IMG/VR virus record: IMGVR_UViG_3300028832_000110
Coordinates: 43,406 to 107,405 of that record
Length of the DNA: 64,000 bases
Source of the DNA: a virus
Taxonomy: Duplodnaviria; Caudoviricetes
Direction: 5' to 3' (one strand)
The notes under the pieces were generated by a model, which was not told the origin of the DNA, searched no databases, and was given only the letters and a program-made list of their open reading frames with translations. Within the stretch, counting starts at the first letter, position 1; every line of letters begins with the position of its first letter. The position numbers and the translations under genes are program-made. Shown here piece by piece: positions 37,001-58,154 of the stretch.

Positions 37001-37051
37001 GCGCGTATTTAACCCTATAATATAAATATTTTATTTCTTAACACTCAAAAA

Positions 37052-40483: not shown

Positions 40484-40498
40484 TTTGGTTTGGAATTA

Positions 40499-40575
40499 AG
40501 TACGAAACAAGTACGAAAGAGTACGATACGAAGTACGATGGCTTTCAGTACGATTAATTTCTGCTGAAAGTACGA
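40499..40575 (+). repeat. AGTACGA motif cluster
   Basis: Six copies at 40499, 40510, 40520, 40532, 40547, 40569. Confidence 0.9.
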
Positions 40576-40699
40576 AAGGTTTTTAGTTATTTGCTTTAGT
40601 TATTTTATCTCCCTAATTTGTTGCATCCGTGAGGACTATTACTTTCCCTTGATTAATTTTTCAACGGAAAGTACGATGTAATTCTAATAGTATTTAGTT

Positions 40700-40921
40700 A
40701 TGGCAAATTCAGAGTTCAAAGCAAGCGGTTATTTATGCCTATCAAATTCTGGAGGAATTGAGGTAGAAATAAATAGCTGTGGTGATGGTGTGCGTTATCG
40801 CTTCACCCACGACCAAAAAGTTTCAAGGTGGCAGGAGGTTAAATATTCGCGCCGAGAATCACGACCTTATTTCGTGTGTCATAAACGCAGGTATTATCTG
40901 GATCAGTTTATGCGCAGTTGA
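40700..40921 (+). CDS. Hypothetical protein (hairpin array)
   Basis: 73 aa, preceded by a hairpin and A-rich leader. Confidence 0.7.
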   Translation: MANSEFKASGYLCLSNSGGIEVEINSCGDGVRYRFTHDQKVSRWQEVKYSRRESRPYFVCHKRRYYLDQFMRS

Positions 40922-40990
40922 AAGTACGAAGAATTTCCCATGATTTAATTATCGTGGGAAGTACGATGAATTTAATGAAAGGAAAAAGTT

Positions 40991-41134
40991 ATGGAAAAGT
41001 CATTCAAAGAAATTGCGGCTCAGATTGAGCGCATTTACACCCTTTATTATCGTTGGGGTTGTGGTACGAAGAAAATGATCGAGAAATCGGAAAGGTTTTT
41101 CACGTCACGGCAAAGAATTGGCTTGTGCTTCTGA
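40991..41134 (+). CDS. Small hypothetical protein (47 aa, hairpin array)
   Basis: MEKSFKEIAAQIERIY...; fills the space between two hairpins. Confidence 0.55.
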   Translation: MEKSFKEIAAQIERIYTLYYRWGCGTKKMIEKSERFFTSRQRIGLCF

Positions 41135-41198
41135 TTTTCCACCGCTTAATTGTGGTGGAGAGTACGAAATTATTTTCTAACACTAAAATGAGTAAATT

Positions 41199-41495
41199 AT
41201 GGAAACTATTAAGATTAGCGAAAAGTCCTTGAAGAAATTCAAGGGCATTAGACGAAAGAAAATTCTGAAGGTTTTCCGAAGCTATTGTGACGCATACTTA
41301 GAGTATGTGAATAATTGGCTGACTTGGGAGAAATTCGTCGAATTCTTTGAACTTGATGAAAAAGAGTGCGAGAATTTACTGCAAGCCGTGAAGATGATGA
41401 ATGCGCAGGATAATACTGCGTACAATTCTCTGGATTATTTCTACCACAAAGTAGCAAACACGAAATTCAGCGAAAAAAACTCATGCTTTGATTAG
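41199..41495 (+). CDS. Hypothetical protein
   Basis: 98 aa. Confidence 0.65.
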   Translation: METIKISEKSLKKFKGIRRKKILKVFRSYCDAYLEYVNNWLTWEKFVEFFELDEKECENLLQAVKMMNAQDNTAYNSLDYFYHKVANTKFSEKNSCFD

Positions 41496-41498
41496 GCC

Positions 41499-41765
41499 AT
41501 GGATAAGTTCGGATTGATACGGATATTTTCTAACGGAGAAAGATTCGTGAAACGTCAGCAGGAACACACGCCAAAAGGAACGATGTTCACATTTGACATG
41601 AAAAAGTTGGATAGAAAACTGAGGAAGAAATCATTTAGTTTTCTGTGCAGGCGCGGAGTCGATGAAATTCAGTACATAAATTTCTTTGTAGAAGACAGCC
41701 ATGAGAATTATCTGGCTGCAAAGGTTTATAACGAGAAATTTCTTTGGGATTGCATCAACTCCTAA
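41499..41765 (+). CDS. Hypothetical protein
   Basis: 88 aa, coupled to the previous gene. Confidence 0.6.
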   Translation: MDKFGLIRIFSNGERFVKRQQEHTPKGTMFTFDMKKLDRKLRKKSFSFLCRRGVDEIQYINFFVEDSHENYLAAKVYNEKFLWDCINS

Positions 41766-41839
41766 AATTCTCTTTGCGGTTCCTGGGATAAAGCTCAGCA
41801 ACCGCACAATTTATTTATTCACACTAAAATTTATGGACT

Positions 41840-42505
41840 ATGAAACAAGTTACGATTAGGCTTTACAAGTTCGAGGAATTATCCTCAGAATCTAAGGCGA
41901 AAGTTATTGAGCGTGAGCGTGAACAAATTCAGCAGTGGGGAATCGACGCTTGGGATTCCGAGCATCGTGCCACTCTGGAAAAGTTTGAAGCAATTTTCGA
42001 TGTAAACGTCAAGCATTGGGAAGTGAATGATTATTCTCATAATTATCAGTTCACTTTCAACAATGATTTCTACGGCATGGATGCAAGCGAAATCACGGGC
42101 AAATATTTGCTCCGTTTCCTCAACTCCATTTATTACGATGTACGCAGCGGCAAATATTTCAGTTGCGGTCAGCGTTACGACGAGAACGGCAAATTTCACT
42201 ACTCCTGCAAGCATTCAAAAATTCTGTGGGAAGAATTTAATTGCCCTCTCACTGGAGTTTGCTACGACAACGAAATCTTGAAACCGATCTGGGATTGGCA
42301 CAAGAAACCGAATTGGAATTTATCTCTGGAAAATCTGGTAGATGAATGCCTTGAAAGTTTCTTCAATTCGTGGGAGCAGGAAATGCTCTATTGCGGAAGC
42401 GATGAATATTGCATCCAAGAATTGACGGAATCGAGTGCTTACGAAGACACGCTCTATTTTGAGGACGGAACTGAGTTCAAAGGAATCTACGAGGATGCAG
42501 CCTAA
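41840..42505 (+). CDS. Acidic/aromatic hypothetical protein
   Basis: 221 aa; N-terminus LYKFEELSSESKAKV resembles a family common on mobile elements. Confidence 0.7.
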   Translation: MKQVTIRLYKFEELSSESKAKVIEREREQIQQWGIDAWDSEHRATLEKFEAIFDVNVKHWEVNDYSHNYQFTFNNDFYGMDASEITGKYLLRFLNSIYYDVRSGKYFSCGQRYDENGKFHYSCKHSKILWEEFNCPLTGVCYDNEILKPIWDWHKKPNWNLSLENLVDECLESFFNSWEQEMLYCGSDEYCIQELTESSAYEDTLYFEDGTEFKGIYEDAA

Positions 42506-42566
42506 AATTTTGGAGGGCTTAATTGCTCTCCAAAGTACGAATAGTATTAACTAAAATTCAATTAGT

Positions 42567-43232
42567 ATGAGAATCAGGCAAGAAACCATTGATATTTTGC
42601 AGGCGCAAGGTATCAGCATTCGTTGGTATGGTGAATCCACCTACGAAGAGTTCAAGAAAAATCAGTGGGAAAAGCAGTACAAAAAATGGTTTGATTATTC
42701 AAAGTCATCGTGCAAGGAACTTAACCCACCGAAAAATGACGGCTCGTATGAGAGTTGGAATTACGACACTCTTGCAGAGTACGAGGAATCTATCAAGAAA
42801 TTCTGCGACCAAATTATTGACAGGCATTGCAGCCCCTACGAATACGACACGTTATTTGTCGAGCACGATAATGGTCAGATTTTGGTCAAGAAAGAAAACG
42901 TGAAATCTAAGGAGATTACAGTTGACTATGTTTTGAAGTTGGTTGAGAAAGACAGAAAAACCTACGCTGGAACATACGGAAAATTCGCTATGGAAATGCA
43001 GCGGATTTGCAAGGAAATGGGATATACCACAAGTTTGACGGTTTATCCCACGACCTACGGCATCGGTGTTTGGTTGTTCTATAATTTCCATGCCGACACC
43101 CATATAGAAAACGTTACGAAAATCATGCAGCAGAAAGGCATAGAATTCTACAACGAATATTCTGATAAGCGTTGGGTGTATAGATTCAAGGTATCGAAAA
43201 AGCGTGAGAATCTGGAGCGAATTTATTCGTAG
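42567..43232 (+). CDS. Hypothetical protein
   Basis: 221 aa. Confidence 0.7.
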   Translation: MRIRQETIDILQAQGISIRWYGESTYEEFKKNQWEKQYKKWFDYSKSSCKELNPPKNDGSYESWNYDTLAEYEESIKKFCDQIIDRHCSPYEYDTLFVEHDNGQILVKKENVKSKEITVDYVLKLVEKDRKTYAGTYGKFAMEMQRICKEMGYTTSLTVYPTTYGIGVWLFYNFHADTHIENVTKIMQQKGIEFYNEYSDKRWVYRFKVSKKRENLERIYS

Positions 43233-43312
43233 TTTATAAAGTTTTAGTGTTTGGGCGGTGTCGATTAATTTCGGCATCGCTTTCTATTATTCACCAATTA
43301 ATTCAATAAATT

Positions 43313-43567
43313 ATGGCTTACTATCAGACGCATATTATGATGCAGGAAGAGGACGGAATTTACCGCCATATTCCTCTCTATTTCGGCACTACGCAGGACA
43401 GAAAAGAGGGCGAGGAACATTTTAACAAGGTTTGCGCCCAAATCTTTGAGTTTGAAAAAGACGTAGAATTTAAGGATCACGATGGGCGCGGAATTTTCGG
43501 CACGATAAAAAGTGCTTGCGGAAACGTCACATCGAGTTTCAACATCAAGGGCAAATATTTGGTGTAG
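43313..43567 (+). CDS. Hypothetical protein
   Basis: 84 aa. Confidence 0.65.
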   Translation: MAYYQTHIMMQEEDGIYRHIPLYFGTTQDRKEGEEHFNKVCAQIFEFEKDVEFKDHDGRGIFGTIKSACGNVTSSFNIKGKYLV

Positions 43568-43681
43568 TTGACGCAATCAATTTTCAAGCCGTCAACTGCA
43601 AGCATTATTTGACTGGAGAATAATGCAGGAATCACTAATCTGGTTCCTGCTGCCTATTGTTTCACTAAAATTTAATGGACT

Positions 43682-43972
43682 ATGTTAGAGATCGTAAGAG
43701 CAGAGAGAATCGGCTTGGAAGAAACAAAGGATTATTCCAGACCAAACGACACACGATTGATGTGGGGATTTGTTGCCGAAATCAGCGATGGCAGTTTTTA
43801 CTACACCTCAGAGGGCGGCACTGACATCTACGGAACTTGGACGGAAATCAAGAGCAGAATCAACATTTCCAACGTCCACGATTTCCAGAGCAAGCATTTC
43901 AACTTTTTCATCAATGATTTGGAAACCTTCAAACATTGCGTGTTGCAGATGCTAAAGGAATTAGGAGATTAA
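43682..43972 (+). CDS. Hypothetical protein
   Basis: 96 aa; stop TAA lies in the loop of the next hairpin. Confidence 0.65.
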   Translation: MLEIVRAERIGLEETKDYSRPNDTRLMWGFVAEISDGSFYYTSEGGTDIYGTWTEIKSRINISNVHDFQSKHFNFFINDLETFKHCVLQMLKELGD

Positions 43973-44017
43973 TTTCTCCGATTCCACAAAATTATTAACC
44001 CCTAAAAATATTTGATT

Positions 44018-44929
44018 ATGGAAACAAGAAATTATCTAAAGTGGAATCCTTCAAAGTTCTACCGCGAGGGAAAAGACAAGATGAAAATCGTTGTTCACGT
44101 AAGTCTTGACGATGAATGTAAAAACAAGCATTGTGATTTCAGTATCACTTGCAGTATTTATCGGGTGGCAGGAAATGGCCATTTAATTGACGCTGGCGGT
44201 GGTTGCAACCACGAAGAGATTGGAAAACACTTTCCAGAATTGCAGAAGTTTTTTCCTCTTCACATTTGCGCCCACGAAGGAACTCCAATGTACCCCGAAG
44301 CCAACGGCATTTATTTCATAGAGCATGATACCAAAGAGTGCGCTATGAGAAATCTGCGTTGCACTGAGGAAGAGTATGAAACGCTCTCAAAATTCACGAA
44401 AGAAAAGTTGTATTTCAAGTATCTGCTTTTCGACCTTGGTATTGTTGAGCGTTGGAAAAAGGAAGCAGATGAATTCATTGCTTTCCTTGAAGAGAAATGC
44501 GGATATAAATGGGTAAATCCCTACACTCCAGAGCAAGAGCGTTTCCGCTTGGTTTTAACGGACGAAGAAAGGGCTACGATTGAAAAGCAGCTCAGCGAGG
44601 GCGGTTTTACTCCCGAATCTCTGGCAGAACGTCGCCAGAAAGAATTTGAGGCTGAAAAAGCGAAGTATATCGAGGAAATTGAAGCCGAATACAAAAAGCG
44701 GACGGGAAGCGCGGATGCAAAGCGTAAGACTTTGCGCTACATTCTTGACCAAGGAATTTCTCTGAAAAACGTCATCTACTACGACCACAGCAACGAGGTA
44801 CACTTTAATTGGAAGTCATACGACGATCTGATTACGCAGGAAGAATTCGTGGATTTCATCAACAATTTGGATTGTTCGATAATTCCAGAGTTTGTGACGT
44901 TCCACATCGACAACGTAAAGCCAGAGTAA
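44018..44929 (+). CDS. Hypothetical protein
   Basis: ~303 aa; DDECKNKHCDFSIT...GGCNHEEI Cys/His motif. Confidence 0.75.
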   Translation: METRNYLKWNPSKFYREGKDKMKIVVHVSLDDECKNKHCDFSITCSIYRVAGNGHLIDAGGGCNHEEIGKHFPELQKFFPLHICAHEGTPMYPEANGIYFIEHDTKECAMRNLRCTEEEYETLSKFTKEKLYFKYLLFDLGIVERWKKEADEFIAFLEEKCGYKWVNPYTPEQERFRLVLTDEERATIEKQLSEGGFTPESLAERRQKEFEAEKAKYIEEIEAEYKKRTGSADAKRKTLRYILDQGISLKNVIYYDHSNEVHFNWKSYDDLITQEEFVDFINNLDCSIIPEFVTFHIDNVKPE

Positions 44930-44994
44930 TCTCTTCAGATTGTGCGGGATTAATTTTCCGCACAGTCGCCATTAACCCCTAAATTAAAGAAATT

Positions 44995-45252
44995 ATGGCT
45001 TATCCAACTACCGCAAGAGTTTCAATGCTTGCAAACAATCAGTTAATCATCAAGGATGGTGAGAAGCAAATCTTCCAGAGTTATTCATCAATTATCTGCG
45101 TAAAAGACGGAAAAAATATCACCCTTGACGCAGACAAATGGAATTTCTCAGCGACTACGACAAAGTATTTGGGTCGGTTCCTGGGAATGAACAAAGCCGA
45201 GATTATGAAACACATAAAAGACGGCTCTTTCAAGCTCGCAGACCTCAACTAA
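44995..45252 (+). CDS. Hypothetical protein
   Basis: 85 aa; FQSYSSII...SATTTKY motif. Confidence 0.7.
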   Translation: MAYPTTARVSMLANNQLIIKDGEKQIFQSYSSIICVKDGKNITLDADKWNFSATTTKYLGRFLGMNKAEIMKHIKDGSFKLADLN

Positions 45253-45314
45253 GGTTTTGAGGCATTAATTTGCCTCAGAACCGCCATAGAATTATTCACC
45301 TAATAGATTTGATT

Positions 45315-45560
45315 ATGACAAAGAAACAAGCGAGACAGAAAACCCGCAGGCTTATCCGTGACGCATCGGATTTAATGCGGAAAAAGTTGGAAAAAGCTCT
45401 GATTTGCGGAGCAATCAACTTTGACAATTATGACGATGATTATGAACTACCGAGAATTATTCTCATGGCACTCTTGAAAGAAGCGACTTTCCAATTCAAG
45501 CCTATTCGTGATCCGAAAAAGCAGGAGAAAGAAGCAAACAATATTTACGCTATGATTTAA
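45315..45560 (+). CDS. Hypothetical protein
   Basis: Probable start 45315. Confidence 0.6.
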   Translation: MTKKQARQKTRRLIRDASDLMRKKLEKALICGAINFDNYDDDYELPRIILMALLKEATFQFKPIRDPKKQEKEANNIYAMI

Positions 45561-45578
45561 CTCTAATTTTGTGCGACT

Positions 45579-45803
45579 ATGGCATATACGATTAAAGGCT
45601 TGGCAAAAGCCAACGATTGCGAAGAGCAGAACGAATTCGGACTTGCTCAGGTTTGGAACTACTGGCTTTCTTGCAATAGCAATGACCGCCAATGTGTGAA
45701 CGATTTCAAGCGGCTCAGAAAGGAGGAAAGAAAGCGGATGCTTGAACACCTGCGAGAATATCCTACCCTGCGTGAGCACATTATTTCTCACCTCTACGAC
45801 TAA
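45579..45803 (+). CDS. Hypothetical protein
   Basis: 74 aa. Confidence 0.6.
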   Translation: MAYTIKGLAKANDCEEQNEFGLAQVWNYWLSCNSNDRQCVNDFKRLRKEERKRMLEHLREYPTLREHIISHLYD

Positions 45804-45859
45804 GTTAGATGGGCGATTAATTTCGCCTACCTAACCCAACCAATAAATTCTATTCAATT

Positions 45860-46198
45860 ATGCCGTACAAATCAGAGAAAATTAAGATTGCCGGAACTAA
45901 GCATGACCGCAGGCGCAAACTCACTGAAGACCAAAAACAATATATCCGATGGCTTCGTGAGGAAGAGAAAATCAGCTACCAGAAACTTGCAGATATGTTC
46001 GATGTTTCTAAGAGGCTGATTATTTTCATCTGCAAGCCAGAAATTCAGCAAAAGGCGCGTGAACGATTCAAGAAATACAAAGCAGAGGGTCGTTACAAGC
46101 CAACGAAAGAGGAATGGGCTGAGACGATGAAAGAGCATCGCCATTACAAGCAGAAACTATTCTGCGACGGCAAAATCAAGGAATCTGCTGACGAATAA
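45860..46198 (+). CDS. HTH DNA-binding protein
   Basis: KLTEDQ...ISYQKLADMFDVSKRLI. Confidence 0.7.
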   Translation: MPYKSEKIKIAGTKHDRRRKLTEDQKQYIRWLREEEKISYQKLADMFDVSKRLIIFICKPEIQQKARERFKKYKAEGRYKPTKEEWAETMKEHRHYKQKLFCDGKIKESADE

Positions 46199-46234
46199 TC
46201 ACGGATTCCACTATTCACTTAAAATTTGGAAATT

Positions 46235-46450
46235 ATGACTATCGGTTACTTCTACAAAGAGTATGAGATAAATGGTACATTGTATTATATATCTCAGTAT
46301 GCAGACAAACCGCATTTCGTAAAACTTTGGGAATACGGCTACGTCTATTTCAACTATCGTATCGGGCAGCAGGTTTACCCCAAAATGTGCGTATCAATTA
46401 GCAGGGGATTGCGATCACGTCCAAATCTCAAAAGGCTATTCGGTAGTTAA
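46235..46450 (+). CDS. Hypothetical protein
   Basis: Stop TAA lies in a hairpin loop. Confidence 0.55.
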   Translation: MTIGYFYKEYEINGTLYYISQYADKPHFVKLWEYGYVYFNYRIGQQVYPKMCVSISRGLRSRPNLKRLFGS

Positions 46451-46495
46451 TTCTACCAATAGCCACAAAAATTATTCACCTAAAAAGATTGAGTT

Positions 46496-46921
46496 ATGGA
46501 AAAGAGAAATTTTATCCCTGCACCCATCGACAACAAGAATTTGGTCGAGGATGCCTTTGAGGATGCCAATGAAATATTCGGCAACTTCTACGAGGGCAAA
46601 GGACATCGTGAGAAAGGGCTAAGACATTTGGTTGGCTTTGTTCGGGTATTCGACAAAGAATATCCGCAGTGCGTAAATGCAGAGGGTTACGTCAGGGCGA
46701 AATGGAGTTTTGGCGACAACAAGGTAGAAATCGAAATCCTTGCCAACAATCCCTTCATGGAAGACTATGAAGATACGAAGAAAGACATCTGCGACTACTA
46801 CAAAAAGCAGTTCAAGTCATGGGAAAACGAGCAGAATTTGGGCTTGCGCGTTGAATTCATTGATTATGAAAGCGGAATGTACGTGAGTTTCTTCTACGAC
46901 ATGGATGATCCAAATCTATGA
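46496..46921 (+). CDS. Hypothetical protein
   Basis: 141 aa. Confidence 0.7.
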   Translation: MEKRNFIPAPIDNKNLVEDAFEDANEIFGNFYEGKGHREKGLRHLVGFVRVFDKEYPQCVNAEGYVRAKWSFGDNKVEIEILANNPFMEDYEDTKKDICDYYKKQFKSWENEQNLGLRVEFIDYESGMYVSFFYDMDDPNL

Positions 46922-46984
46922 CAATGCCTGCGCCCTCTTAACTGAGGGCATGGGCGCAAATTATTCACCAATAAAATTCAAATT

Positions 46985-47500: not shown

Positions 47501-47568
47501 TTGGTTATGGTGAGCGAAATATCTCACCATGGCCGCTAAATTTATTCATTCACCTAATATTTTCAGTT

Positions 47569-47745: not shown

Positions 47746-47834
47746 ATCTACTCCAGAGAGTACGATTAACTTCGTATTCTCTGCCTATTTCGAGAGTTTT
47801 TTAACCCTATTTATTAATTTAAAAACATTCAATT

Positions 47835-48629
47835 ATGACAGAGAGACAAAATTTTCTCCTTGAACTCTACCGAGAATTCGGTGACAAGGCGCAGAACGCA
47901 TTGGATTTCGTTATCGCTAACGATGGCGGCTCAATCCTCAGACCACAAGCAAATGCACAAGCAAATGCTAATGCAGGAACTATCGAGGTCTATGACTTCA
48001 AGAATCCAGAAGTTATGCTGAAGGAATTCTATGAAATCAAAGCCAGATTCTTAGTCATCAACAACCACCTCATTAAAAAAGACGTGGAAGATGAACTCCT
48101 TGACACGCAGGCTGACGGCCTCTACACCTATCTCCGAAACCTCCGCAAGAGAATCGGCGACATCAACTCCGTAAAACTTCAAGACCAACCATTCGAGGTT
48201 GTTGACTTGGGATTGCCCTCTGGCAGAAAATGGGCGAATATGAACCTTGGTGCTACCAAGCCCAACGAAACAGGTTTATACCTCACCCACGAAGATGCCT
48301 GCAACTTCAAGTTTGAAGACGGATGGAAAATGCCGACTGACGATGACTTCGTAGAACTCTGCGACAACTGCGAACACGAATGGAAGGAAATTGATGGTGT
48401 CTATGGTCAGATGTTTACATCTAAGATTAATGGCAATTCAGTTTTCTTCCCCGCGTCCGGCTTCTACAATGGTACGACGTTGTACTATCGTGGGTCGTAC
48501 GGCCTCTATTGGGCCGCTACGTTGTATTCCTCTTCGAGTGGTCGCCTCTTGTACTTCCTTGCGTCTGATGTCAATCCGCAGAGCAGCTACGATCGGTTCT
48601 ACGGTTTTTCTGTGCGCCCGGTTCAGTAA
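47835..48629 (+). CDS. C-type-lectin-fold protein, probable DGR target
   Basis: VDLGLPSGRKWANMNLGA...MPT...FFPASG...YW...GFSVRPVQ; variable-region-like C-terminus with a downstream GC hairpin. Confidence 0.8.
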   Translation: MTERQNFLLELYREFGDKAQNALDFVIANDGGSILRPQANAQANANAGTIEVYDFKNPEVMLKEFYEIKARFLVINNHLIKKDVEDELLDTQADGLYTYLRNLRKRIGDINSVKLQDQPFEVVDLGLPSGRKWANMNLGATKPNETGLYLTHEDACNFKFEDGWKMPTDDDFVELCDNCEHEWKEIDGVYGQMFTSKINGNSVFFPASGFYNGTTLYYRGSYGLYWAATLYSSSSGRLLYFLASDVNPQSSYDRFYGFSVRPVQ

Positions 48630-48758
48630 TTATTCAACCGCGAAACCCGTCTGCCGACAAAGCCGCCACCAAGCGGCTACAAAAGGCAGACGGAAAATTA
48701 GGAGGAAGCGGATCAATTTCTGCTTTCTCTTCCATTGTCTAACCAAAAAAGAAAAATT

Positions 48759-49295: not shown

Positions 49296-49356
49296 GGGAA
49301 ATGCGGATCAATTTCCGCACTCCCACATTAATGTTTCACTCTAAATTCAAAAAGTT

Positions 49357-49893: not shown

Positions 49894-49960
49894 TTCCTCC
49901 AGACCATTTCGCGCTAATCCTCGAAATGGTCACGATTTATTCACCAAAATTCAGAAGATT

Positions 49961-50215: not shown

Positions 50216-50275
50216 CTATGTGCGGAATAATATCCGCATATAGCCCTATTATTTATTCACCAAAATTCATTTATT

Positions 50276-50941: not shown

Positions 50942-50998
50942 GCCATTGAGCCGATTAACTTCGGCTCCTGGCACTATTAACCCTAAAATTCAAGAATT

Positions 50999-51778
50999 AT
51001 GAGAGTAAAAATTAAATTCGACCCAGACGGCGAGTATGGTTATCCCAAAAACATAATCATCAGCGCACAACAGTTGGTAAGGGATTACATCGACCACTTA
51101 AATGAAGTCGAAGATGCAGACACCATTTCTTTCCTCAGAAAGACAGAAATAGGAAAGGCAGTTGACTTCGTGGCAGAAATGTGGGAACTTGACTACGACG
51201 TGGTTTCTACCAGAAACATTCGCAGATGCAGCGTTTGTGGCAAACTCATTTCCTCTGGCTATCTCTTTGACGGAACAGATGCGTTCTGCGACAAAGATTG
51301 TGCAACACGATTCTTTGACAATGATGAAGGATGCGTGGATATTCTTATTGACGAAGGTGAGAGATTAGTCTGGCATGATGAATTCCCACTACGCGACCAC
51401 TACCGCGTAAACATTGGACACTTTGCCACCGAATGCTTCCACCATTTCGACAACGAAGACAGAATGTTCCAATGGATTTCTGAAATGATTGGTCAGAAAG
51501 TCAGTTCGTTTGAAGATTGTGAGGAATGGACGCGCAAGCAGGATGATGAAAAAGGCAGATACATCGAGATTCTTTGCATCGACAATATTCCAGAGTTTTA
51601 CAAGCATCGCAGGGAGTACGTTCAATGCCTGCAAGATTGCGATGACCTTATGACCAAAGCTCAGAGGTTGCCATTAGGTGCAAAACGTGACTACCTCATT
51701 CGCAGGTTTGGCAAACGCTATGAAGATGCGAATTGGTATTGGGATGCCTACCCAGAAATCTGGCAGGGAGAGATTTAA
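50999..51778 (+). CDS. Hypothetical protein with zinc finger
   Basis: CSVCGK...FCDKDC; stop lies in a hairpin loop. Confidence 0.7.
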   Translation: MRVKIKFDPDGEYGYPKNIIISAQQLVRDYIDHLNEVEDADTISFLRKTEIGKAVDFVAEMWELDYDVVSTRNIRRCSVCGKLISSGYLFDGTDAFCDKDCATRFFDNDEGCVDILIDEGERLVWHDEFPLRDHYRVNIGHFATECFHHFDNEDRMFQWISEMIGQKVSSFEDCEEWTRKQDDEKGRYIEILCIDNIPEFYKHRREYVQCLQDCDDLMTKAQRLPLGAKRDYLIRRFGKRYEDANWYWDAYPEIWQGEI

Positions 51779-51824
51779 CTATCTCCCCTACCTCTATTTT
51801 ATTCACTTATTAATTCAGTTAATT

Positions 51825-51983: not shown

Positions 51984-51994
51984 AACTTACGGCT

Positions 51995-52231
51995 ATGTAT
52001 GTAGTAAAGACCAATATCCCAACTATCAAGGATGAATATCGCAAGCAGAGTTTCAGCAGGAAACGCGATGCCATGCGCACATTCACGAATATGCGTAGAT
52101 TCTGCGACAACAACGACTATGCCTACAAATTGTTCATCCGTGACCCCAAAACCCGCAGGAAGCCCATCAGAGGCACGATGCAGGTAGAAATCGGTGGATT
52201 CTTTTTCTATGTTGAACTTTATAGAGAGTAA
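51995..52231 (+). CDS. Hypothetical protein
   Basis: 78 aa. Confidence 0.6.
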   Translation: MYVVKTNIPTIKDEYRKQSFSRKRDAMRTFTNMRRFCDNNDYAYKLFIRDPKTRRKPIRGTMQVEIGGFFFYVELYRE

Positions 52232-52236
52232 TTGCT

Positions 52237-52410
52237 ATGGAAGAAAAGAAAGTTTATCTGATTGTTCAAGATGTGCCGTCTTCAACGAAGACTTTGGCGC
52301 GAGTGTTCAGTTCGCCGGAAAAGGCGCAGGAAATTGCCGAAAGCCGCGACGAAAGAACTGGAGAGAAAGTCTACCCCAACAGCCGCGTCGTTGAGCGCGT
52401 TGTGGAGTAA
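52237..52410 (+). CDS. Small hypothetical protein (57 aa)
   Basis: MEEKKVYLIV...RVFSSPEKAQE, similar to the motif in the 46985 ORF. Confidence 0.6.
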   Translation: MEEKKVYLIVQDVPSSTKTLARVFSSPEKAQEIAESRDERTGEKVYPNSRVVERVVE

Positions 52411-52473
52411 CGCTATGGATGCTCTGGCTTAACTGCCGCTGCATCCGCTATGTCTAACCAAACATTATAAATT

Positions 52474-52767
52474 ATGAACGAAGAAAGAATCGTTGAGGTT
52501 TTCGACCATGCTCAGAACCTACGCAAGAAGTCTGGCAAAAAACAGGCTTTCATTTATCTCGTTGGCTGCTATGCCGCACACACAAAGCCCAACTGCCTAT
52601 TGCGAGAATATTGGGCTGAAATGCGGAATATAGTGAACCATAATTTCGCCATGACAAACGGCGAGTACACAAGGTTTTTGTTCTACTACGAAGCATCCTG
52701 CAATATCATTGCTAAATTGTTTGGCAGGTATGCGTGGTACAACACCCTCTCTATCGACATCAATTAG
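52474..52767 (+). CDS. Hypothetical protein
   Basis: 97 aa. Confidence 0.6.
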   Translation: MNEERIVEVFDHAQNLRKKSGKKQAFIYLVGCYAAHTKPNCLLREYWAEMRNIVNHNFAMTNGEYTRFLFYYEASCNIIAKLFGRYAWYNTLSIDIN

Positions 52768-52858
52768 TCCATAATTGAATTTTAGGTGAAAGGTGTGCGG
52801 AGAATTAATTTTCTCCCACACTGCGACGATTTTGTCAGAACAATTAAAATTCAGTATT

Positions 52859-53485
52859 ATGGTTACATTAAGAGAAATCTTAGAGAATGACATGGGATGC
52901 CACAAAGCATTCAATGGCGATGGCAGTCTCAGTTATGAAGGTGTGGAAGCAGTGGAGAAAATCATTGAATTCCTCCAAGACCTCGCAAGTTGCGGTATCA
53001 TTCCAGACGTAACGGAGCAGGCACAGACTCAGTTTGACGAGATTATGAAAGTAAATCGTTCTGCCAAAGAGCAGATGATTGTCGAACTCCACGAATTCGT
53101 AACGCATGGTGATCGCAGTTTCGTGCTCAGAAATCCAGTAATGGCTAAGACTGAGGACGGACATGATTTACTTGCAAAGTATTTCAGCCGCGACATCGAC
53201 TACGCAGATATTTTCTGTGCCGACTACGAATTAGGGAATGACGATGCGACTGTCTTTGATATGCAGGATATGTCAGATGATTCAGTCAAGCAAATCTACG
53301 AAGCCATCAAGACGCAGGAGATTGAGGACGGATGGGATTGGAAGGAACACGCCACCCATGAAATCAAGAAGAAATATCCAGACGCAGAGGATTGCCATGT
53401 ATGCGATTTCGTGACGATGTATTGGAACAACCTCGACACCGACACCGCAAACCTTGAAGTCTTTGAGGACTGGATGAACAACTGA
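52859..53485 (+). CDS. Acidic hypothetical protein
   Basis: Probable start 52859; D/E-rich. Confidence 0.7.
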   Translation: MVTLREILENDMGCHKAFNGDGSLSYEGVEAVEKIIEFLQDLASCGIIPDVTEQAQTQFDEIMKVNRSAKEQMIVELHEFVTHGDRSFVLRNPVMAKTEDGHDLLAKYFSRDIDYADIFCADYELGNDDATVFDMQDMSDDSVKQIYEAIKTQEIEDGWDWKEHATHEIKKKYPDAEDCHVCDFVTMYWNNLDTDTANLEVFEDWMNN

Positions 53486-53554
53486 TTTACCTTGCAGTCA
53501 TTAAGTTGGCTGCAAAGTACGACGCTATTGTCACAACATTTAAAAATCACAATT

Positions 53555-54784
53555 ATGGAAAATTTACAGAAAGATTTAGCCATCTTCAAGGCTATGTACG
53601 GATTCGCTAACGAGTTGTTCTTTGATGCCTGCAATGCCAGTCCAAAACTGCGTGAGGAAATCAGAAAGTGCGGTAATGCCGTGAGCGTGGAGCAGCTAAC
53701 GAAAAACGGCTCAGACCTCAATATCGCATTCAACGATACCATAGTAACAATCGCGGGCGATGTCTGTCACATCGAAATCGACGGCTTTGAGTGCCAGTTC
53801 CAGATCAACCAGGTATTCGACCTGCTGAAATACTGGAAGTCATTGGCAAAGGTTAAGGGTGAGATTATGTTCGCCTACGAAGAGCAGGTGGATATGACGT
53901 TGGTAACTACCATCGGTTTTGCCTTCGACAACGCTGCCCTCGCCAAAAAACTCGCTAAGTGTACGTCAAAGGAGGAATTCAGACCCGCTTTGAACTGCGT
54001 GTTGGCAGAAGTGAATCTCGACACCGAGTTAGTCAGTTTCGTAGCTTCAGACGGACATATCATTTCCGTAATCACAACCGATGTCATTGGTGTGCATCGT
54101 AACAATCCCTACGACCATGTTCTCAGGGCATTGTTCACGGCAAAGGATTGGGAAAGAATCTGCGACTATGCTAAGAAGAATGGTAACTCCGTAGAATTTG
54201 AATTCTACTGCCGCAAGGAAATGCAGGTGCATGACACCGCCATTGCCTGCTGTGGCGACATGAAGATCAAGAGCGTGTTGCAGAGTTTCGAGGATAGCGG
54301 TAGCGGTTATCCCAACTGGCATCGTGTCATACCATTCGAGTACGACTATCAGCACCTCAGACTGACAAAGGAAGCTCAGAAGGAATTCGCCAACTATTTC
54401 AAGGCGGCGAAATCGCAGGCTTACCATGTCATCCTCAGTGCCTATGAGGGATGCAAATACCTCTATATCGACGAAACCGACGTGGACTTTGGAAAGAATA
54501 TCGAGGCTAAGTTTGAACTGGTTGAGCCTGCAACGAAAGATGTGTGCTTCGGAGCAGCTAAACACCAGATGCTCAAATTCCAGACCGAAGGAATGTGGAT
54601 CGACAACTCCAACCAAGCCATCCTCTTAGATTCAAAGGAATTCGACATCACTCTGGTCATGCCCTGCATTGACAGCGAAGGCCAAGGATATTCCATCGAC
54701 GAAGAGACTGCCGACGAGAGACGCGGATTCGTGCTCAATCCAGAGCCGGAGGTTGTGGAGAAAGAGGTTTGCGTAGCAGCCTGA
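53555..54784 (+). CDS. DNA polymerase III beta-clamp-like protein
   Basis: EFRPALNCV, VASDGHII and GYPNWHRVIP match DnaN middle-domain motifs. Confidence 0.65.
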   Translation: MENLQKDLAIFKAMYGFANELFFDACNASPKLREEIRKCGNAVSVEQLTKNGSDLNIAFNDTIVTIAGDVCHIEIDGFECQFQINQVFDLLKYWKSLAKVKGEIMFAYEEQVDMTLVTTIGFAFDNAALAKKLAKCTSKEEFRPALNCVLAEVNLDTELVSFVASDGHIISVITTDVIGVHRNNPYDHVLRALFTAKDWERICDYAKKNGNSVEFEFYCRKEMQVHDTAIACCGDMKIKSVLQSFEDSGSGYPNWHRVIPFEYDYQHLRLTKEAQKEFANYFKAAKSQAYHVILSAYEGCKYLYIDETDVDFGKNIEAKFELVEPATKDVCFGAAKHQMLKFQTEGMWIDNSNQAILLDSKEFDITLVMPCIDSEGQGYSIDEETADERRGFVLNPEPEVVEKEVCVAA

Positions 54785-54850
54785 ACTATGGGGGAAATGA
54801 GGTTAATTCCTCATTCCCTGCAAATATATCTTAAATATGCAATTAAATAT

Positions 54851-54881
54851 TTTGCACATTAAATAATAATCACTAAATTTG
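54851..54881 (+). promoter_or_regulatory. Bacteroidota promoter
   Basis: TTTG ... TAAATTTG. Confidence 0.6.
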
Positions 54882-54889
54882 CACCGATT

Positions 54890-55255
54890 ATGGAATTGAA
54901 CAAAACGACAAAACTCAAAAAGGGTGAGCGTGTTGATGTTGCGGATATGCAGCGCAACCAACGCATTATGTATTTTCCCAAGACCCAAGAGATTAGGTTA
55001 AAGGCAAGCGACATATTCTGCAAAGCCGAGCCGGACTATAAGGAATGTATCGTGCTGTCGCAGTCAAAGGCTGCAAAAGCCTATCCCGACCTATTCTTCA
55101 ATTCTTCAAAGGCATTGCCTTATGATCCCGACAACATTCAGACCACTATCAAGTTGACGAGGGAACAGGACGCATTCTGTCGCAGGCACGGAACTCTCAG
55201 CGGCTACATCAAGAGCCTTATTGACAAGGAAATGAAAAAAGAAGCAAAGAAATGA
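54890..55255 (+). CDS. Possible ribbon-helix-helix regulator
   Basis: C-terminal TTIKLT...LSGYIKSLIDKEM. Confidence 0.55.
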   Translation: MELNKTTKLKKGERVDVADMQRNQRIMYFPKTQEIRLKASDIFCKAEPDYKECIVLSQSKAAKAYPDLFFNSSKALPYDPDNIQTTIKLTREQDAFCRRHGTLSGYIKSLIDKEMKKEAKK

Positions 55256-55494
55256 CCGTATTAGATGCCATCGAAATCCCCGAACTCGACATCACCGTTA
55301 CCGAGGTTGTTGAGGACTGCTTCTATTATAAGATGGCTATGCTTGGCAGAATTTCCCATGAGCAAGGCGAACTCACGGAAAATCGCCTGAGAGGGAAGTA
55401 CGATAAAGACACATTGGAAAAAGCATTTGCCACTGCTGATAGAATGATTAACAACATTGACGAATACGGAGTGCCTTGCATATCCATGATGTAA
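55252..55494 (+). CDS. Hypothetical protein
   Basis: 80 aa. Confidence 0.6.
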   Translation: MTVLDAIEIPELDITVTEVVEDCFYYKMAMLGRISHEQGELTENRLRGKYDKDTLEKAFATADRMINNIDEYGVPCISMM

Positions 55495-55571
55495 TCTCTA
55501 TTGCTTTCACCGTCTTAACTGAGGGTGGAAGCGCAAAGCAATAGTGCTGAATTTATTAAAGTAAAGAGATT

Positions 55572-56156
55572 ATGAAGAAACCAATTATGACGTTTCCAGA
55601 ATTTGAGAGCAAATGTCAGCAGTGGTTCGACACCTATTCCAACCGCTATCACCTATCCGATTTAAGGGTATGGCGCACGGTTCCTGGGAATATCGAAGAC
55701 CGCGATGTCTGGTATTGCTTGGTGGGCGTTAGGCGTGGCGTAACACTTATTCTTTTGTACGACCATTCCGGCGAACTCGACTATCCGTTTGAAGTGATGT
55801 GCGATTGGGCGCGTAAAAGCCTCACAATGCCGTCTTCTATGCGTTGTGGATATACTACCCACATCGGAGAATATGAGACGATTACGGCGGCTTTCTGCGA
55901 CATGGCTGAAGAGCCGAGTCCATTCCTCATTTCCAACCTCAATGACAGCTACGGCATTGGCAGAGTATTGAACGATGAAGAAAAGCAAATGAATATGGGA
56001 AAGATGATTGACTTTGACCGATTATCTTTCTTGGAGTGTCTGGATAAGTTGCAGGAATGGCGTGATCATCCCAATGCCTGCGAATGGACTGGAAGAAAGA
56101 TGACCATATTCAAACATGACACCATGGCCGAAGAAATCTATGTGACACAACTCTGA
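55572..56156 (+). CDS. Hypothetical protein
   Basis: 194 aa. Confidence 0.7.
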   Translation: MKKPIMTFPEFESKCQQWFDTYSNRYHLSDLRVWRTVPGNIEDRDVWYCLVGVRRGVTLILLYDHSGELDYPFEVMCDWARKSLTMPSSMRCGYTTHIGEYETITAAFCDMAEEPSPFLISNLNDSYGIGRVLNDEEKQMNMGKMIDFDRLSFLECLDKLQEWRDHPNACEWTGRKMTIFKHDTMAEEIYVTQL

Positions 56157-56182
56157 TTTGTCTGACTAAAATAGTATAGATT

Positions 56183-56542
56183 ATGTTAAAGAACGAAGAA
56201 CAGAACGAGGGTAGGACACGTCGCCCGCAGGACGATTTGCCCTACGAGCGTAGGATGCTCTACATTATCAAGGATTATCGCCGACTAACCTCTGCGAATG
56301 AAACCCTTGAAACCTACGCCAAACAACTGGAGAAAGAGAATGAGCGACTGCGTGGCGAGAATGACCGCCTAAAACGTGAGAACGAGAACTGGAAGAAAGT
56401 CAAGCAGCCCAATGAGGGCATGGTTACGGCTATGCAGGGCTTACTCAATGAAAAGCGAGACCTCCTTACGTCTCAACGCGCTCAAATATCACTATTGCGC
56501 CGAGAACTCGACGAATACAAGAAGTTGTACGGCGAATTGTAA
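56183..56542 (+). CDS. Coiled-coil hypothetical protein
   Basis: 119 aa. Confidence 0.65.
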   Translation: MLKNEEQNEGRTRRPQDDLPYERRMLYIIKDYRRLTSANETLETYAKQLEKENERLRGENDRLKRENENWKKVKQPNEGMVTAMQGLLNEKRDLLTSQRAQISLLRRELDEYKKLYGEL

Positions 56543-56812
56543 TTCTATTGGGTTATGGCCATTAATCTTTGCCATAACTCGCAAATCATACATAATTTGA
56601 ATTTTGGTTAGACCGCCACAATTTCGTGGCAAATTCGAGTAGGTTCTATCAATTTTAGAGCTTACTCTCTATATTTTGTAAAACATTCGGAAATATTCGA
56701 GGCGACTCTAATGATTTTCTACCAAAATCGCATAAAATATCGAATGTTATTCGTATATTTGCACATTATTAGTGTTATCAGTATTTATTAAACCCTCTAA
56801 AATCAATTATTT

Positions 56813-57058
56813 ATGAACAGTTGGCAAATTGACAGAAACGATGGCCTCCTTCAGACTCTTATCGAGGTCAATGAATTGGAAGACAAGTTCGGACAACTCG
56901 ACCTCTCCGATGAAGAGAAGAACCAAGTGCAGGATTCTGTGGCGATGATGAAAGGCATCCTTACCACGAAAATCGGAGAGGACACACAACGTCAGATCGA
57001 GAAGACGTTGGCTGAAGAGCGCGAGGAAGAAAGAAAGCGCAAGGAAAAGCAGGCGTAA
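56813..57058 (+). CDS. Hypothetical protein
   Basis: 81 aa; TATATTTG promoter element at ~56754. Confidence 0.65.
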   Translation: MNSWQIDRNDGLLQTLIEVNELEDKFGQLDLSDEEKNQVQDSVAMMKGILTTKIGEDTQRQIEKTLAEEREEERKRKEKQA

Positions 57059-57144
57059 TCCAAAGGAGCAGCTAAAGCCTAATCGCTTGCTGCTTCACCA
57101 AATATCAATTTTAGTAGTAACCAAAATATCAAATTCAACAAGTT

Positions 57145-58089
57145 ATGGGAATCGAAGATTTAAGAAAGCATCTGGGCGGCAAGTACGATGACAAGGTACT
57201 GACTCAGATTTTGGAATCCCCCTTCATTGATCATAGGGGAGGTATTAGTTTTAGGGAATGGCGTAGTAGCTTCGTCGGAGCGTTCCTTTGCAAGACACCA
57301 GAGCGCATACACATCTTGAAGTATGTGGTGGCTGCATTGAATAAGGAAACGGTGCAATGGAGCGATTTCACCACCACCAACCTAACAATCATCCGGGATT
57401 ATATCAGCGACACCGTATCTGCTAATTCGGCATCGGTGTATCTGAATATCCTCAAAGCCCTTCTTAACGAGAACTGCGACAACAAAATGTTGCCGAATGC
57501 CAATTTCTCTAAGATATTGACAGTACGAAAGGAGCCGAGCCAGAACGTAGCACTCACTCCTGCCGAAATCGAACTCATTGAGAAGTATCAGCCCAAAAAC
57601 AAGCACGAAAAGGCTGTCAAGGCTCAATTCTTGTGTGAATATTATTGTGGCGCAAGAAGTTCGGATATTCAGCAGATGACTGAAGCCAACATCGTTGACG
57701 GCTATATCGTCTATGTGTCGCAGAAGACGAGGGTAGAAACCTCAGTGCCTTTGCACAAGAATTTCTTGAAGTATTTCAGGCAAAGAGGAAAGGAATACTC
57801 CAGACCCTCATACAACCGCATTATCAAGCGTATCTGTCAAGCCGTAGGCATCAACGACCCCATCAAGCTATATTATCATGGTAAGACGCAGGTGCGCCCG
57901 AAGTACGAACTCGTTGGCTCTCATACCGCACGTCGGAGTTTTGCCACAGCACTGGCTCAGAGGAATGTGCCATTGAGCACCATATCCAAACTAATGAACC
58001 ACAACGGCAACGAAACCATGACATCGCGCTATATCTGTGTCGATACGCAGAACATCGGCAGTGAGGCCATGGCGTTCTTTAATCAATAA
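57145..58089 (+). CDS. Tyrosine recombinase / integrase
   Basis: Catalytic R (GARSSD), K (SQKT), HxxR (HTARRSF), H (MNH), Y (TSRYI); 314 aa with no obvious arm-binding domain. Confidence 0.92.
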   Translation: MGIEDLRKHLGGKYDDKVLTQILESPFIDHRGGISFREWRSSFVGAFLCKTPERIHILKYVVAALNKETVQWSDFTTTNLTIIRDYISDTVSANSASVYLNILKALLNENCDNKMLPNANFSKILTVRKEPSQNVALTPAEIELIEKYQPKNKHEKAVKAQFLCEYYCGARSSDIQQMTEANIVDGYIVYVSQKTRVETSVPLHKNFLKYFRQRGKEYSRPSYNRIIKRICQAVGINDPIKLYYHGKTQVRPKYELVGSHTARRSFATALAQRNVPLSTISKLMNHNGNETMTSRYICVDTQNIGSEAMAFFNQ

Positions 58090-58154
58090 AATTTGCAGGG
58101 ATGCGATTAATTTCGTATCTTTGCACCCAAGTTTCAAATTATAAAATTTCGGTT

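Follow-up and report, generated by a model that had tools for sequence, protein, structure and literature searches.

Loop-conserved hairpins between the small early genes of a Bacteroidales-type phage: a candidate punctuation of long early transcripts

In the early operon of T7 and T3, nearly all cistrons of the long transcript are separated by hairpins that are RNase III sites; after cleavage, the hairpin left behind shields the 3' end of the upstream RNA. The T7 sites extend over about two helical turns, contain an internal loop, and are read through the helix. Substrates of yeast Rnt1p carry an AGNN tetraloop on a variable stem, with the cut placed 14-16 bp away from the tetraloop. Loops that are conserved on stems of variable sequence but defined length are the mark of a loop-reading, helix-measuring enzyme. 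To our knowledge, no Rnt1p-like enzyme has been reported in Bacteroidota. Among phages, the promoter-early stem-loop (PeSL) cassettes of T4-like phages were described as short composite intergenic modules (Arbiol et al., 2010, PMC2839356; Comeau et al., 2014, PMC4122927).

The window analyzed here is a stretch of 64,000 nucleotides (positions 43,406 to 107,405 of IMG/VR record IMGVR_UViG_3300028832_000110) from a Bacteroidales-type phage of 107 kb, in which about 35 small early genes of unknown function, all in the same orientation and almost all without a Pfam match, are spaced by hairpins. The initial annotation had placed a hairpin array between genes at about 40.5-58.1 kb; its five quoted examples were all recovered where it had located them, and when every gap was folded, 31 hairpins were obtained on the plus strand from 40541 to 58125 (Table 1). 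A 6-nt loop of the YYAANY type is present in 27 of the 31. The individual loops are TTAATT (13), TTAACT (6), CTAATC (3), TCAATT (2), and TTAAGT, ATAATA, and ATAAAG (one each), with four loops of other lengths. Stems contain 12 pairs in 17 hairpins and 10-13 pairs in 29, with folding energies from -13 to -21 kcal/mol, a G-rich 5' arm, a C-rich 3' arm, and G.U recurring as the third pair. Stem sequences are unrelated to one another while pairing is kept, as had been claimed, in an alignment that was itself selected for pairing. In 24 of 31 cases the hairpin starts within 11 nt past the stop codon or overlaps it, the TAA of the loop being the stop codon in three (43970, 46448, 51776), and 24-38 nt separate the hairpin end from the next ATG in 25 of 31. 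The hairpins abut a conserved leader of about 30 nt, running from TATTCACC or TAACC through AAAATTCA to ATTATG; TTATTCACC occurs exactly six times, always on the plus strand within the array. The proposal that a structure-recognized element delimits units of one to three genes is supported by an element that is defined by structure, strand-specific, and conserved in its loop.

Table 1. Coordinates of the array hairpins and associated features in the window.
Feature	Coordinates	Strand	Remarks
Hairpin 1	40541..40571	+	loop TTAATT; within AAGTACGA repeat block
Hairpin 2	40640..40673	+	loop TTAATTTT; AGTACGA next
Hairpin 3	40933..40962	+	loop TTAATT; 12 pairs; AGTACGA next
Hairpin 4	41134..41163	+	loop TTAATT; overlaps stop codon
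Hairpin 5	41775..41806	+	loop ATAAAG
Hairpin 6	42507..42536	+	loop TTAATT; AGTACGA next
Hairpin 7	43253..43282	+	loop TTAATT; four G.U pairs
Hairpin 8	43625..43650	+	loop CTAATC
Hairpin 9, short (5 bp)	43964..43979	+	loop TTAATT; stop codon is loop TAA
Hairpin 10	44938..44967	+	loop TTAATT
Hairpin 11	45253..45282	+	loop TTAATT; begins immediately past stop
Hairpin 12	45804..45835	+	loop TTAATT
Hairpin 13, short	46437..46461	+	loop TTAATT; stop codon is loop TAA
Hairpin 14	46926..46955	+	loop TTAACT
Hairpin 15	47503..47534	+	loop CGAAATAT, off-consensus
Hairpin 16	47754..47783	+	loop TTAACT; 34-nt island kept in relative L006, flanks unrelated
Hairpin 17	48700..48731	+	loop TCAATT
Hairpin 18	49296..49324	+	loop TCAATT
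Hairpin 19	49902..49931	+	loop CTAATC; L006 homology restarts 2 nt upstream
Hairpin 20	50216..50243	+	loop ATAATA; identical in 4/4 relatives
Hairpin 21	50942..50972	+	loop TTAACT; 5' edge is a junction
Hairpin 22	51762..51792	+	loop TTAACT; stop codon is loop TAA
Hairpin 23	52417..52446	+	loop TTAACT
Hairpin 24	52792..52822	+	loop TTAATT
Hairpin 25	53488..53519	+	loop TTAAGT; AGTACGA next; 5' edge is a junction
Hairpin 26	54791..54819	+	loop TTAATT
Hairpin 27	55502..55533	+	loop TTAACT
Hairpin 28	56549..56581	+	long loop containing TTAATC
Hairpin 29	56637..56667	+	loop TCAATTT
Hairpin 30	57065..57096	+	loop CTAATC; recombinase gene downstream
Hairpin 31	58094..58125	+	loop TTAATT; 3' arm holds canonical Bacteroidetes -7 box (TATCTTTG) for lipoprotein gene
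Convergent-junction hairpin	58630..58661	.	plus strand: loop TTAATT; minus strand: canonical terminator (G.U pairs, seven-T run)
Leader module, example	43283..43315	+	TATTCACC, AATTCA, ATTATG; such a leader follows most hairpins
AAGTACGA, five copies at array head	40498..40676	+	AAGTACGA also after hairpins 3, 6, 25; AGTACGA after hairpin 4
Tyrosine recombinase gene	57145..58089	+	distal array end; generic, not integron-type

Genome-wide, 22 hairpins with an NTAANN loop and at least nine pairs were counted, about 14-fold above the mean of 1.55 (maximum 5) in 20 Markov-2 shuffles. A covariance model applied to 319 kb of three related genomes matched only the two arrays of this clade and three minus-strand copies. 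Neither the virion operons, from which the hairpins had been reported absent, nor a more distantly related phage gave a match, and the same held for Bacteroides phage BI-TP1 and for 184 kb of contigs from unrelated viruses. The earlier remark that this was not recognized as a described element stands in that no Rfam family was matched, but as a type the element is not entirely new, PeSL cassettes being a close precedent. Both are short modules of composite structure that lie between genes and include a stem-loop, both flank small orphan genes of a hyperplastic early region, both have a G-rich 5' arm and a C-rich 3' arm, and in both the insertions, deletions, and replacements of close relatives break within the modules, as modular shuffling points. 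PeSLs, however, hold a strong sigma-70-type promoter and a Shine-Dalgarno sequence, whereas a Bacteroidetes-style A-rich leader without an evident host-type promoter is present here. PeSL copies are similar over about 100 bp, whereas here only the leader and the 6-nt loop are common. PeSLs offer no counterpart to the conserved hexaloop, to a stem uniformly of 12 bp, or to the G.U at pair 3. With T7/T3 RNase III sites the hairpins share the nature of intercistronic, strand-specific RNA structures, although they have one helical turn with a conserved apical loop and cleavage is only putative. These two kinds are, on the best reading, the closest known. The combination of conserved loop and variable stems of defined length recalls Rnt1p substrates, but that enzyme is eukaryotic and its loop a tetraloop; no Rnt1p-like enzyme was found in the phage.

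Strand asymmetry was evident in the hairpins themselves. Under strand-symmetric selection, 104 G.U against 33 A.C wobble pairs were counted on the coding strand (p ~1e-9), the excess being concentrated at pairs 2-3 from the loop; in other clades the bias was not significant. The coding-strand fold was stabler than its complement in 32 of 45 loop-matched hairpins, and with the strictest selection in 10 versus 4 and 10 versus 3 in two clade genomes. Substitutions between orthologous hairpins mostly preserve pairing via G.U. Loop orientation is set by the gene strand, also for the three minus-strand copies, each of which follows a minus-strand gene; there are two exceptions, the hairpin at 58630 and one copy in a relative (G001 43286-43313; L012 3286-3313). 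Based on the coding-strand wobble preference, the element probably acts at the RNA level. Two of the minus-strand copies adjoin RNA genes, one ending 4 nt ahead of the mature 5' end of tRNA-Trp and the other 8 nt ahead of that of the tmRNA, which is too little space for a promoter; RNase P cleavage at these genes would leave the upstream hairpin as a 3' end.

A stable hairpin immediately past the stop codon resembles an intrinsic (Rho-independent) terminator, but 28 of the 31 array hairpins are without the U-tract, as the initial annotation had noted; only 3 of 31 passed even a lenient test, and terminator-like sites were not more numerous than in shuffles. Canonical terminators are used elsewhere in the phage (38789, 39032, and the minus strand of 58630). 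Among the roles offered earlier, RNA processing or stabilization fits best, given the coding-strand G.U bias, the tRNA-Trp and tmRNA copies, the absence of U-tracts, and a spacing too tight for a promoter; the earlier interpretation as a whole is partly supported. Our preferred reading, to which a probability of about 0.5 is assigned, is that the hairpins punctuate long early transcripts at the RNA level in a hyperplastic region of small ORFans, and that the linkers are also a scaffold for gene shuffling. Each linker comprises two separable modules, a hairpin of roughly one turn (about 12 bp, loop YYAANY) and a translation-initiation leader of about 30 nt. On a presumed polycistronic transcript the hairpin, as neither canonical terminator nor promoter, would insulate adjacent cistrons: most likely, an endonucleolytic cut just downstream would leave it as a protective 3' terminus on the upstream RNA, or read-through would be attenuated. 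Loop conservation, together with the uniform length of the stems and the recurrent G.U at pair 3, points to a putative loop-reading protein acting in trans, predicted to differ among phage clades; our search produced no candidate for it.

Transcriptional roles have also to be considered. The host -33/-7 consensus is missing from the linkers, and the array head yielded no canonical promoter; a canonical promoter at 56754 has the identical leader module downstream, and therefore the leader is regarded as 5'UTR. That the units are true PeSL-type cassettes, with the hairpin as terminator or attenuator of the upstream gene and the TATTCACC / AAAATTCA block as a weak or factor-dependent promoter for one transcription unit per gene, can be proposed only tentatively. 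The ORFan-rich setting, the composition of the arms, and the junctions within the motif all match, and the strong promoters in this phage have the sequence TATATTTGCACC, which is similar to TTATTCACC. An exact TAnnTTTG box lies 3-8 nt upstream of ATG in three leaders and a near-consensus TTTAAAnTTTG takes the matching position in BI-TP1; therefore, weak per-gene promoters giving near-leaderless mRNAs are possible. However, TTTG is missing from either promoter element in most linkers, the distance from loop to motif varies (20-28 nt), the leader recurs within the 5'UTR at 56754, U-tracts are lacking, the tRNA and tmRNA copies leave no space for a promoter, and no sigma factor gene was found in the phage. 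Sites of the nut/boxB type, at which an antitermination or pause factor would be reloaded at each gene and carry RNA polymerase across the 17-kb array, are unlikely. BoxB-type sites are indeed read as a conserved loop on a variable stem, the strand specificity is compatible, and the roughly fixed distance from hairpin to start codon is as in Bacteroides capsule operon leaders, where pause hairpins are so placed (PMC11685472); but about 30 sites are far above any known antitermination system, no NusG-like gene was found in the phage, a boxA-like partner is absent, and copies precede tRNA and tmRNA. Even less credible are extruded DNA hairpin promoters of the kind used by the N4 virion RNA polymerase, at which transcription would begin immediately 3' of each hairpin. 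The conserved loop, the near-constant distance ahead of every start (including 4-8 nt before tRNA and tmRNA), the frequent CTAT after the hairpin, and an array without canonical promoter would agree with such a role. It is nevertheless disfavoured: searches for a phage RNA polymerase were negative (a T7-type search gave no match, its control being likewise silent), and of the two strands the template forms the weaker hairpin; besides, stems are twice as long as those of N4 promoters, loops are longer, and thirty early promoters are without precedent.

The hairpin-leader architecture is common to relatives of 100-110 kb, with a clade-specific loop consensus (TTAANT, CYT..CAA, or A-rich). Compared with a relative of 97-98% identity, 7 or 8 of 28 genes are replaced, and 15 of 16 homology breaks lie inside linkers. 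The expected association of breakpoints with the hairpins was borne out, but not at one fixed position: junctions fall at the hairpin 5' edge, at the hairpin/leader boundary, and, most often, in the leader just upstream of ATG. It is highly improbable, therefore, that the hairpins are integron-like sites, folded single strands at which the tyrosine recombinase would excise and insert one-gene cassettes. The resemblance to attC sites is real, with co-oriented single genes, a recombinase gene at one end, and structure kept while stem sequences vary; some junctions coincide exactly with hairpin edges, one cassette occupies different positions between relatives, and the stem base is conserved in some relatives (ACTTCC...GGAAGT-ACGA). 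Against this, neither R/L core boxes nor extrahelical bases occur in the stems, the hairpin accompanies the upstream gene in some cases and the downstream gene in others, and outside the array hairpins also adjoin RNA genes. Matches of the recombinase were only weak ones of Xer type, and it does not fit the integron-integrase model; the syntenic gene of BI-TP1 adjoins a ParA-like gene. On the preferred reading, the linkers persist while the coding sequences between them change, and they therefore also act as the scaffold for recombination that replaces, removes, and reorders genes. It weighs against that reading that selection to keep genes intact makes breakpoints at gene boundaries common in all phages. 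Islands of a hairpin alone or of a linker alone persist between unrelated genes.

Folding of every gap between plus-strand genes revealed 31 hairpins in the array of small early genes, with folding energies of -13 to -21 kcal/mol. The loop is TTAATT in 13 of them, TTAACT in 6, CTAATC in 3 and TCAATT in 2, and the rest comprise three loops of this type that occur once each and four loops of other lengths. The stems, mostly regular helices, are uniform in length (12 pairs in 17/31, 10-13 pairs in 29/31) and have no sequence in common; when 32 hairpins were aligned, no stem column was conserved except the closing pairs. In 24/31 the hairpin overlaps the stop codon or starts no more than 11 nt past it, and in three short hairpins the stop codon is the TAA of the loop. 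The hairpin ends 24-38 nt upstream of the next ATG in 25/31, and its spacing to the start codon is steadier than that to the stop codon. Genome-wide, 22 hairpins with NTAANN loops were counted, whereas Markov-2 shuffles contained 1.55 on average. A covariance model trained on the 32 hairpins and applied to 319 kb of three related genomes (E <=1) detected 33 sites, including 11 outside the training set; all were located in the arrays of this genome and its relative G001, save three minus-strand sites in this genome. The model detected zero sites in the virion operons, the related genome G002, Bacteroides phage BI-TP1, four other loci and 184 kb of unrelated viral contigs, and Rfam returned nothing at E <=1 over 38000-60000. 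The array itself, its unrelated stems with a kept loop and the lack of such hairpins in the virion operons, all claimed in the initial annotation, were thus borne out, and the finding is real and well delimited.

Positions of the features discussed (window coordinates unless a genome or contig is named)
Feature	Position	Strand	Remark
Hairpins 1-31	40541-58125	+	array of early genes
AAGTACGA copies	37566-37615	-	three, inverted, in control region
AAGTACGA copies	40498-40676	+	five, at array head
AAGTACGA copies			singles after hairpins 3, 6 and 25
Tandem AAGTACGA block	L034 1158-1735		example from a related contig
221-aa early protein	42567-43232
HTH-like 112-aa protein	45860-46198
Hairpin island, 34 nt	47756-47789		between unrelated genes
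Entire linker, 67 nt	L002 4206-4272		between unrelated genes
264-aa gene cassette	47835-48629		weak Fib_succ_major match
Long GC-rich hairpin	48640-48695		after 264-aa gene, preceding usual TCAATT hairpin
Promoter-like TATATTTG	54821-54828	-	aimed into hairpin 26 and 3' end of 409-aa gene
Canonical promoter	56754		leader in its 5'UTR
Recombinase	57145-58089
Promoter in hairpin 31	58094-58160		TTTG, 20 nt, TATCTTTG
Lipoprotein gene, true start	58156		signal peptide ending in Cys
Orientation exception	58630
Orientation exception	G001 43286-43313
Iteron-like GCCTACAT words	37040-37300		repeated, AT-rich non-coding, beside primase gene
GTAACATTA/TAATGTTAC palindromes	11193-11216, 37473-37496, 63865-63890
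GTAACATTA/TAATGTTAC palindromes	genome 6115, 7198; G001 32559
Non-coding stretch (L022)	genome 15460-15800	-	between small Xis-like gene and tRNA-Trp hairpin

The virus record, of which the window is the final 64 kb, comprises 107,405 bp with completeness rated at 99%. A large terminase, an SPP1-type portal, a 2450-aa tape measure protein, a primase and a tyrosine recombinase are encoded, and tRNAs and a tmRNA were confirmed; Pfam matches were obtained for almost none of the ~35 small array genes. Strong promoters of the phage are of the TAnnTTTG type, frequently TATATTTGCACC, and Shine-Dalgarno sites are missing from its genes, both of which are habits of Bacteroidota. Based on the portal protein (45% identity), the closest named phages are LoVEphage, Bacteroides phage BI-TP1 and Phocaeicola phage PV4-TP1, and the lineage is long-tailed, with Bacteroidales-type hosts, and distantly akin to LoVEphage. 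A search with two proteins found no prophage copy in bacterial genomes. The relatives compared here were the complete genomes G001 (106 kb) and G002 (105 kb), the partial contigs L002, L006 and L034, and 20-kb stretches of L056 (110-kb contig) and L057 (103-kb contig).

The orientation of the loop tracks the strand of the genes. Three copies beyond the window carry TTAAGT on the minus strand, downstream of minus-strand genes, and two hairpins are exceptions to the rule. Under strand-symmetric selection of hairpins, G.U outnumbered A.C at non-Watson-Crick stem positions by 104 to 33 (p about 1e-9), and G.U was most frequent at pair 3, counted from the loop (12/32 aligned hairpins). Among hairpins selected on Watson-Crick pairs alone, the coding-strand RNA was the better fold in 32/45, and a stricter filter favored the coding strand by 10 vs 4 and 10 vs 3 in the two genomes of the clade; the bias was absent from control hairpins and was not significant in other clades. 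The G.U excess and the coding-strand preference, together with the unbiased controls, therefore point to a hairpin that acts as RNA, and action of the non-template DNA strand is less likely. Two minus-strand copies end 8 nt ahead of the mature tmRNA and 4 nt ahead of tRNA-Trp, and since 4-8 nt leave no room for a promoter, the hairpin must belong to a longer transcribed precursor. After a cut by RNase P, the upstream RNA would carry the hairpin as its 3' end. CTAT lies 3' of both copies, and likewise after many array hairpins. The ~340-nt non-coding stretch beside the tRNA-Trp hairpin may be a further structured RNA.

We infer, with a probability of about 0.5, that the hairpins serve as punctuation of the RNA, by processing, protection or attenuation. 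It is unlikely that they are true terminator-promoter cassettes. The U-tract found directly after the hairpin of an intrinsic terminator is missing here, as initially annotated: a lenient T-run follows the stem in just 3/31, the terminator-like total was not above shuffles, and canonical terminators are used by the phage elsewhere. For the promoter half of such a cassette, the Bacteroidetes TAnnTTTG box occurs in only 3 leaders and 1 hairpin, and sigma-70-like sites were not above shuffles. Most hairpins are followed by a conserved leader, consisting of TATTCACC or TAACC 22-25 nt upstream of the ATG, then AAAATTCA, then ATTATG; because this leader also sits in the 5'UTR of a canonical promoter at 56754, it is read as a translation-initiation region and not as a promoter. 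The two linker modules are separable, leaders being found without a long hairpin and hairpins without a leader. Antitermination, integron-like recombination and hairpin promoters, all raised in the initial annotation, are improbable even when taken together. The lambda nut/boxB site combines a GNRA-like pentaloop on a 5-bp stem with a boxA partner and an N-type protein; stem and loop differ here, inspection of the linkers by eye showed no boxA-like word, and no NusG-like gene is present. N4-type promoters use a template-strand hairpin whose stem has 5-7 bp and whose loop has 3 nt, whereas here the coding strand is the more stable and the stems of ~12 bp carry 6-nt loops. Within RNA punctuation, the hairpins are also unlike T7-type RNase III sites, which are irregular helices of about 20 bp with an internal loop, as the stems here are mostly regular and 10-13 bp long.

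Contig L006 shows 97-98% identity in shared segments, yet it is mosaic and replaces seven or eight of 28 genes; 12/34 array genes are held in common with G001 and 6/34 with G002. Homology to L006 ends within linkers in 15 of 16 cases and within a gene in one. About five of these junctions coincide with the stop codon or the 5' hairpin edge, two lie between hairpin and leader, and about eight lie in the leader, from ~13 nt upstream of the ATG to just beyond it; the inspected junctions of L002 vs G001 fell into the same three classes. The proposed association of breakpoints with the hairpins thus stands, but a single fixed position, as at the boundaries of integron cassettes, does not. Both a hairpin island and an entire linker persist between unrelated genes, the order of the 264-aa gene cassette is altered in G001, and the hairpin moves with the upstream gene in some cases and with the downstream gene in others. 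These three junction classes and shifting partners fit the model proposed for the promoter-early stem-loop (PeSL) cassettes of T4-like phages, namely that linkers, being short and conserved, recombine and that selection keeps genes intact (PMC2839356, PMC4122927), and not an attC-type crossover. As in PeSL regions, intergenic modules surround ORFans in a hyperplastic region, each module holds a stable stem-loop, and indel and replacement junctions between close relatives lie inside the modules; unlike PeSL, no strong host-type early promoter was found in them. An integron-like role was further disfavored by the lack of inverse-core/core boxes at the stem base and of extrahelical bases in the 32 aligned hairpins, and by the recombinase, which is generic: an NCBIfam scan gave weak XerC, XerD and XerA matches far under the cut-offs and no match to the integron-integrase model. 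Its BI-TP1 counterpart is syntenic and small and adjoins a ParA-like gene, and G001 and G002 have direct terminal repeats; rather than an integrase, the enzyme may be a resolvase acting on dimers of a plasmid-like prophage.

All relatives compared have the same architecture, an 11-13 bp hairpin, often ACGA, and then the leader and ATG. The loop consensus is TTAANT in this genome, G001, L002 and L006, CYT..CAA of 7-9 nt in G002, L056 and L057, and A-rich in L034, so the hairpin characterizes the family as a whole, and the hexaloop is derived and clade-specific. BI-TP1 is without hexaloop hairpins, and several gaps of its matching region still carry a hairpin with a comparable leader word downstream. 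Loops that are uniform on unrelated stems within a genome and diverge between clades are the pattern expected from co-evolution with a trans-acting reader. A specific reader is also suggested by the conservation of the hexaloop, the stem length of one turn and the G.U at pair 3. It is tentatively suggested, as a possibility with the odds against it, that an undescribed RNA-binding protein or endonuclease of the phage or its Bacteroidales host takes the hairpins as substrates, reading the loop and measuring the helix; it would recognize a YYAANY hexaloop with G.U at pair 3 and act at the base of the one-turn stem, the loop code having co-evolved by clade. Neither analysis of the 221-aa early protein nor clade gene-content comparison yielded a reader candidate. 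The 221-aa protein (210 clusters, mostly on phage-size contigs) has a confident structure model (pLDDT 84) and a weak Colicin_D match (E 9e-4, under cut-off); neither Foldseek against PDB nor a profile search for solved relatives gave a match. It was rejected as a loop-specific RNase, as it also occurs in phages without TTAANT loops. Among the 42 genes of the TTAANT clade missing from an other-loop relative, ten were scanned with Pfam, and no RNA-binding or nuclease domain was found. The HTH-like 112-aa protein has 732 homologous clusters, its gene being common to phages and other mobile elements, with some homologues in tightly packed surroundings that resemble Bacteroides conjugative elements (PcfK, PcfJ, DUF4120); because such homologues lie in dense operons without hairpins, the linkers do not move with this gene. 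A pseudoknot between loop UAAUU and AAUUA before the AUG was also rejected on inspection: the leader does not change with loop position 5, all 6 TTAACT loops, TTAAGT and the relatives' TTAAAT fail to pair, and only position 6 covaries, in two cases. The three ~200-nt structured RNAs of the phage have no loops complementary for kissing.

The organization is best filed as intercistronic hairpin punctuation with PeSL-like modular linkers, previously undescribed in this phage family or host phylum. Phage early regions are the main store of unknown genes, of which many serve counter-defence, and the expression and exchange of these genes are poorly understood outside E. coli phages. A PeSL-like organization is now found in another phage lineage, in a host group with different promoters and no Shine-Dalgarno use, and the linkers provide precise, predictable gene boundaries, which makes it easier to annotate genes and to plan their exchange in laboratory Bacteroides phages. 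An RNA-binding or RNA-cutting factor could be sought with a concrete handle: the loop code of each clade, the uniform stem length of 12 bp and the wobble pair at a specific position. The RNA biology of this bacterial group is, as far as we know, largely unmapped; if the loop-reading factor is true, it would be a new RNA-processing system in organisms without Shine-Dalgarno-led translation and Hfq, and the same system would set the unit boundaries for early-gene exchange.

The loop was rejected as a -33 promoter element, its spacing to TATTCACC (20-28 nt) and to AATTCA (32-37 nt) being too variable and too long. A literature search for the TTATTCACC word returned primers only, and an exact leader-motif scan of IMG/VR gave 21 single matches, close to a rough chance estimate, with hairpins in none. 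No sigma or NusG gene was found in the phage; PF00940 (T7-type RNA polymerase) had no match, with control genomes equally silent, and the large virion proteins resemble tape measure and tail proteins. The window contains 18 copies of AAGTACGA, where 1.3 would be expected, and the tandem block at the array head recurs in relatives; the word looks like an operator array or stoperator-like sites for a DNA-binding regulator. Hairpin 31 embeds a canonical Bacteroidetes promoter ahead of a lipoprotein gene, likely an accessory gene expressed in lysogeny, and antisense RNA could arise from the strong promoter-like TATATTTG site. The GCCTACAT words may mark a replication origin. A second, sequence-conserved palindrome family (GTAACATTA, an AT-rich centre of 4-6 nt, then TAATGTTAC), intergenic and outside the array, may represent a late-gene operator or a terminator class.
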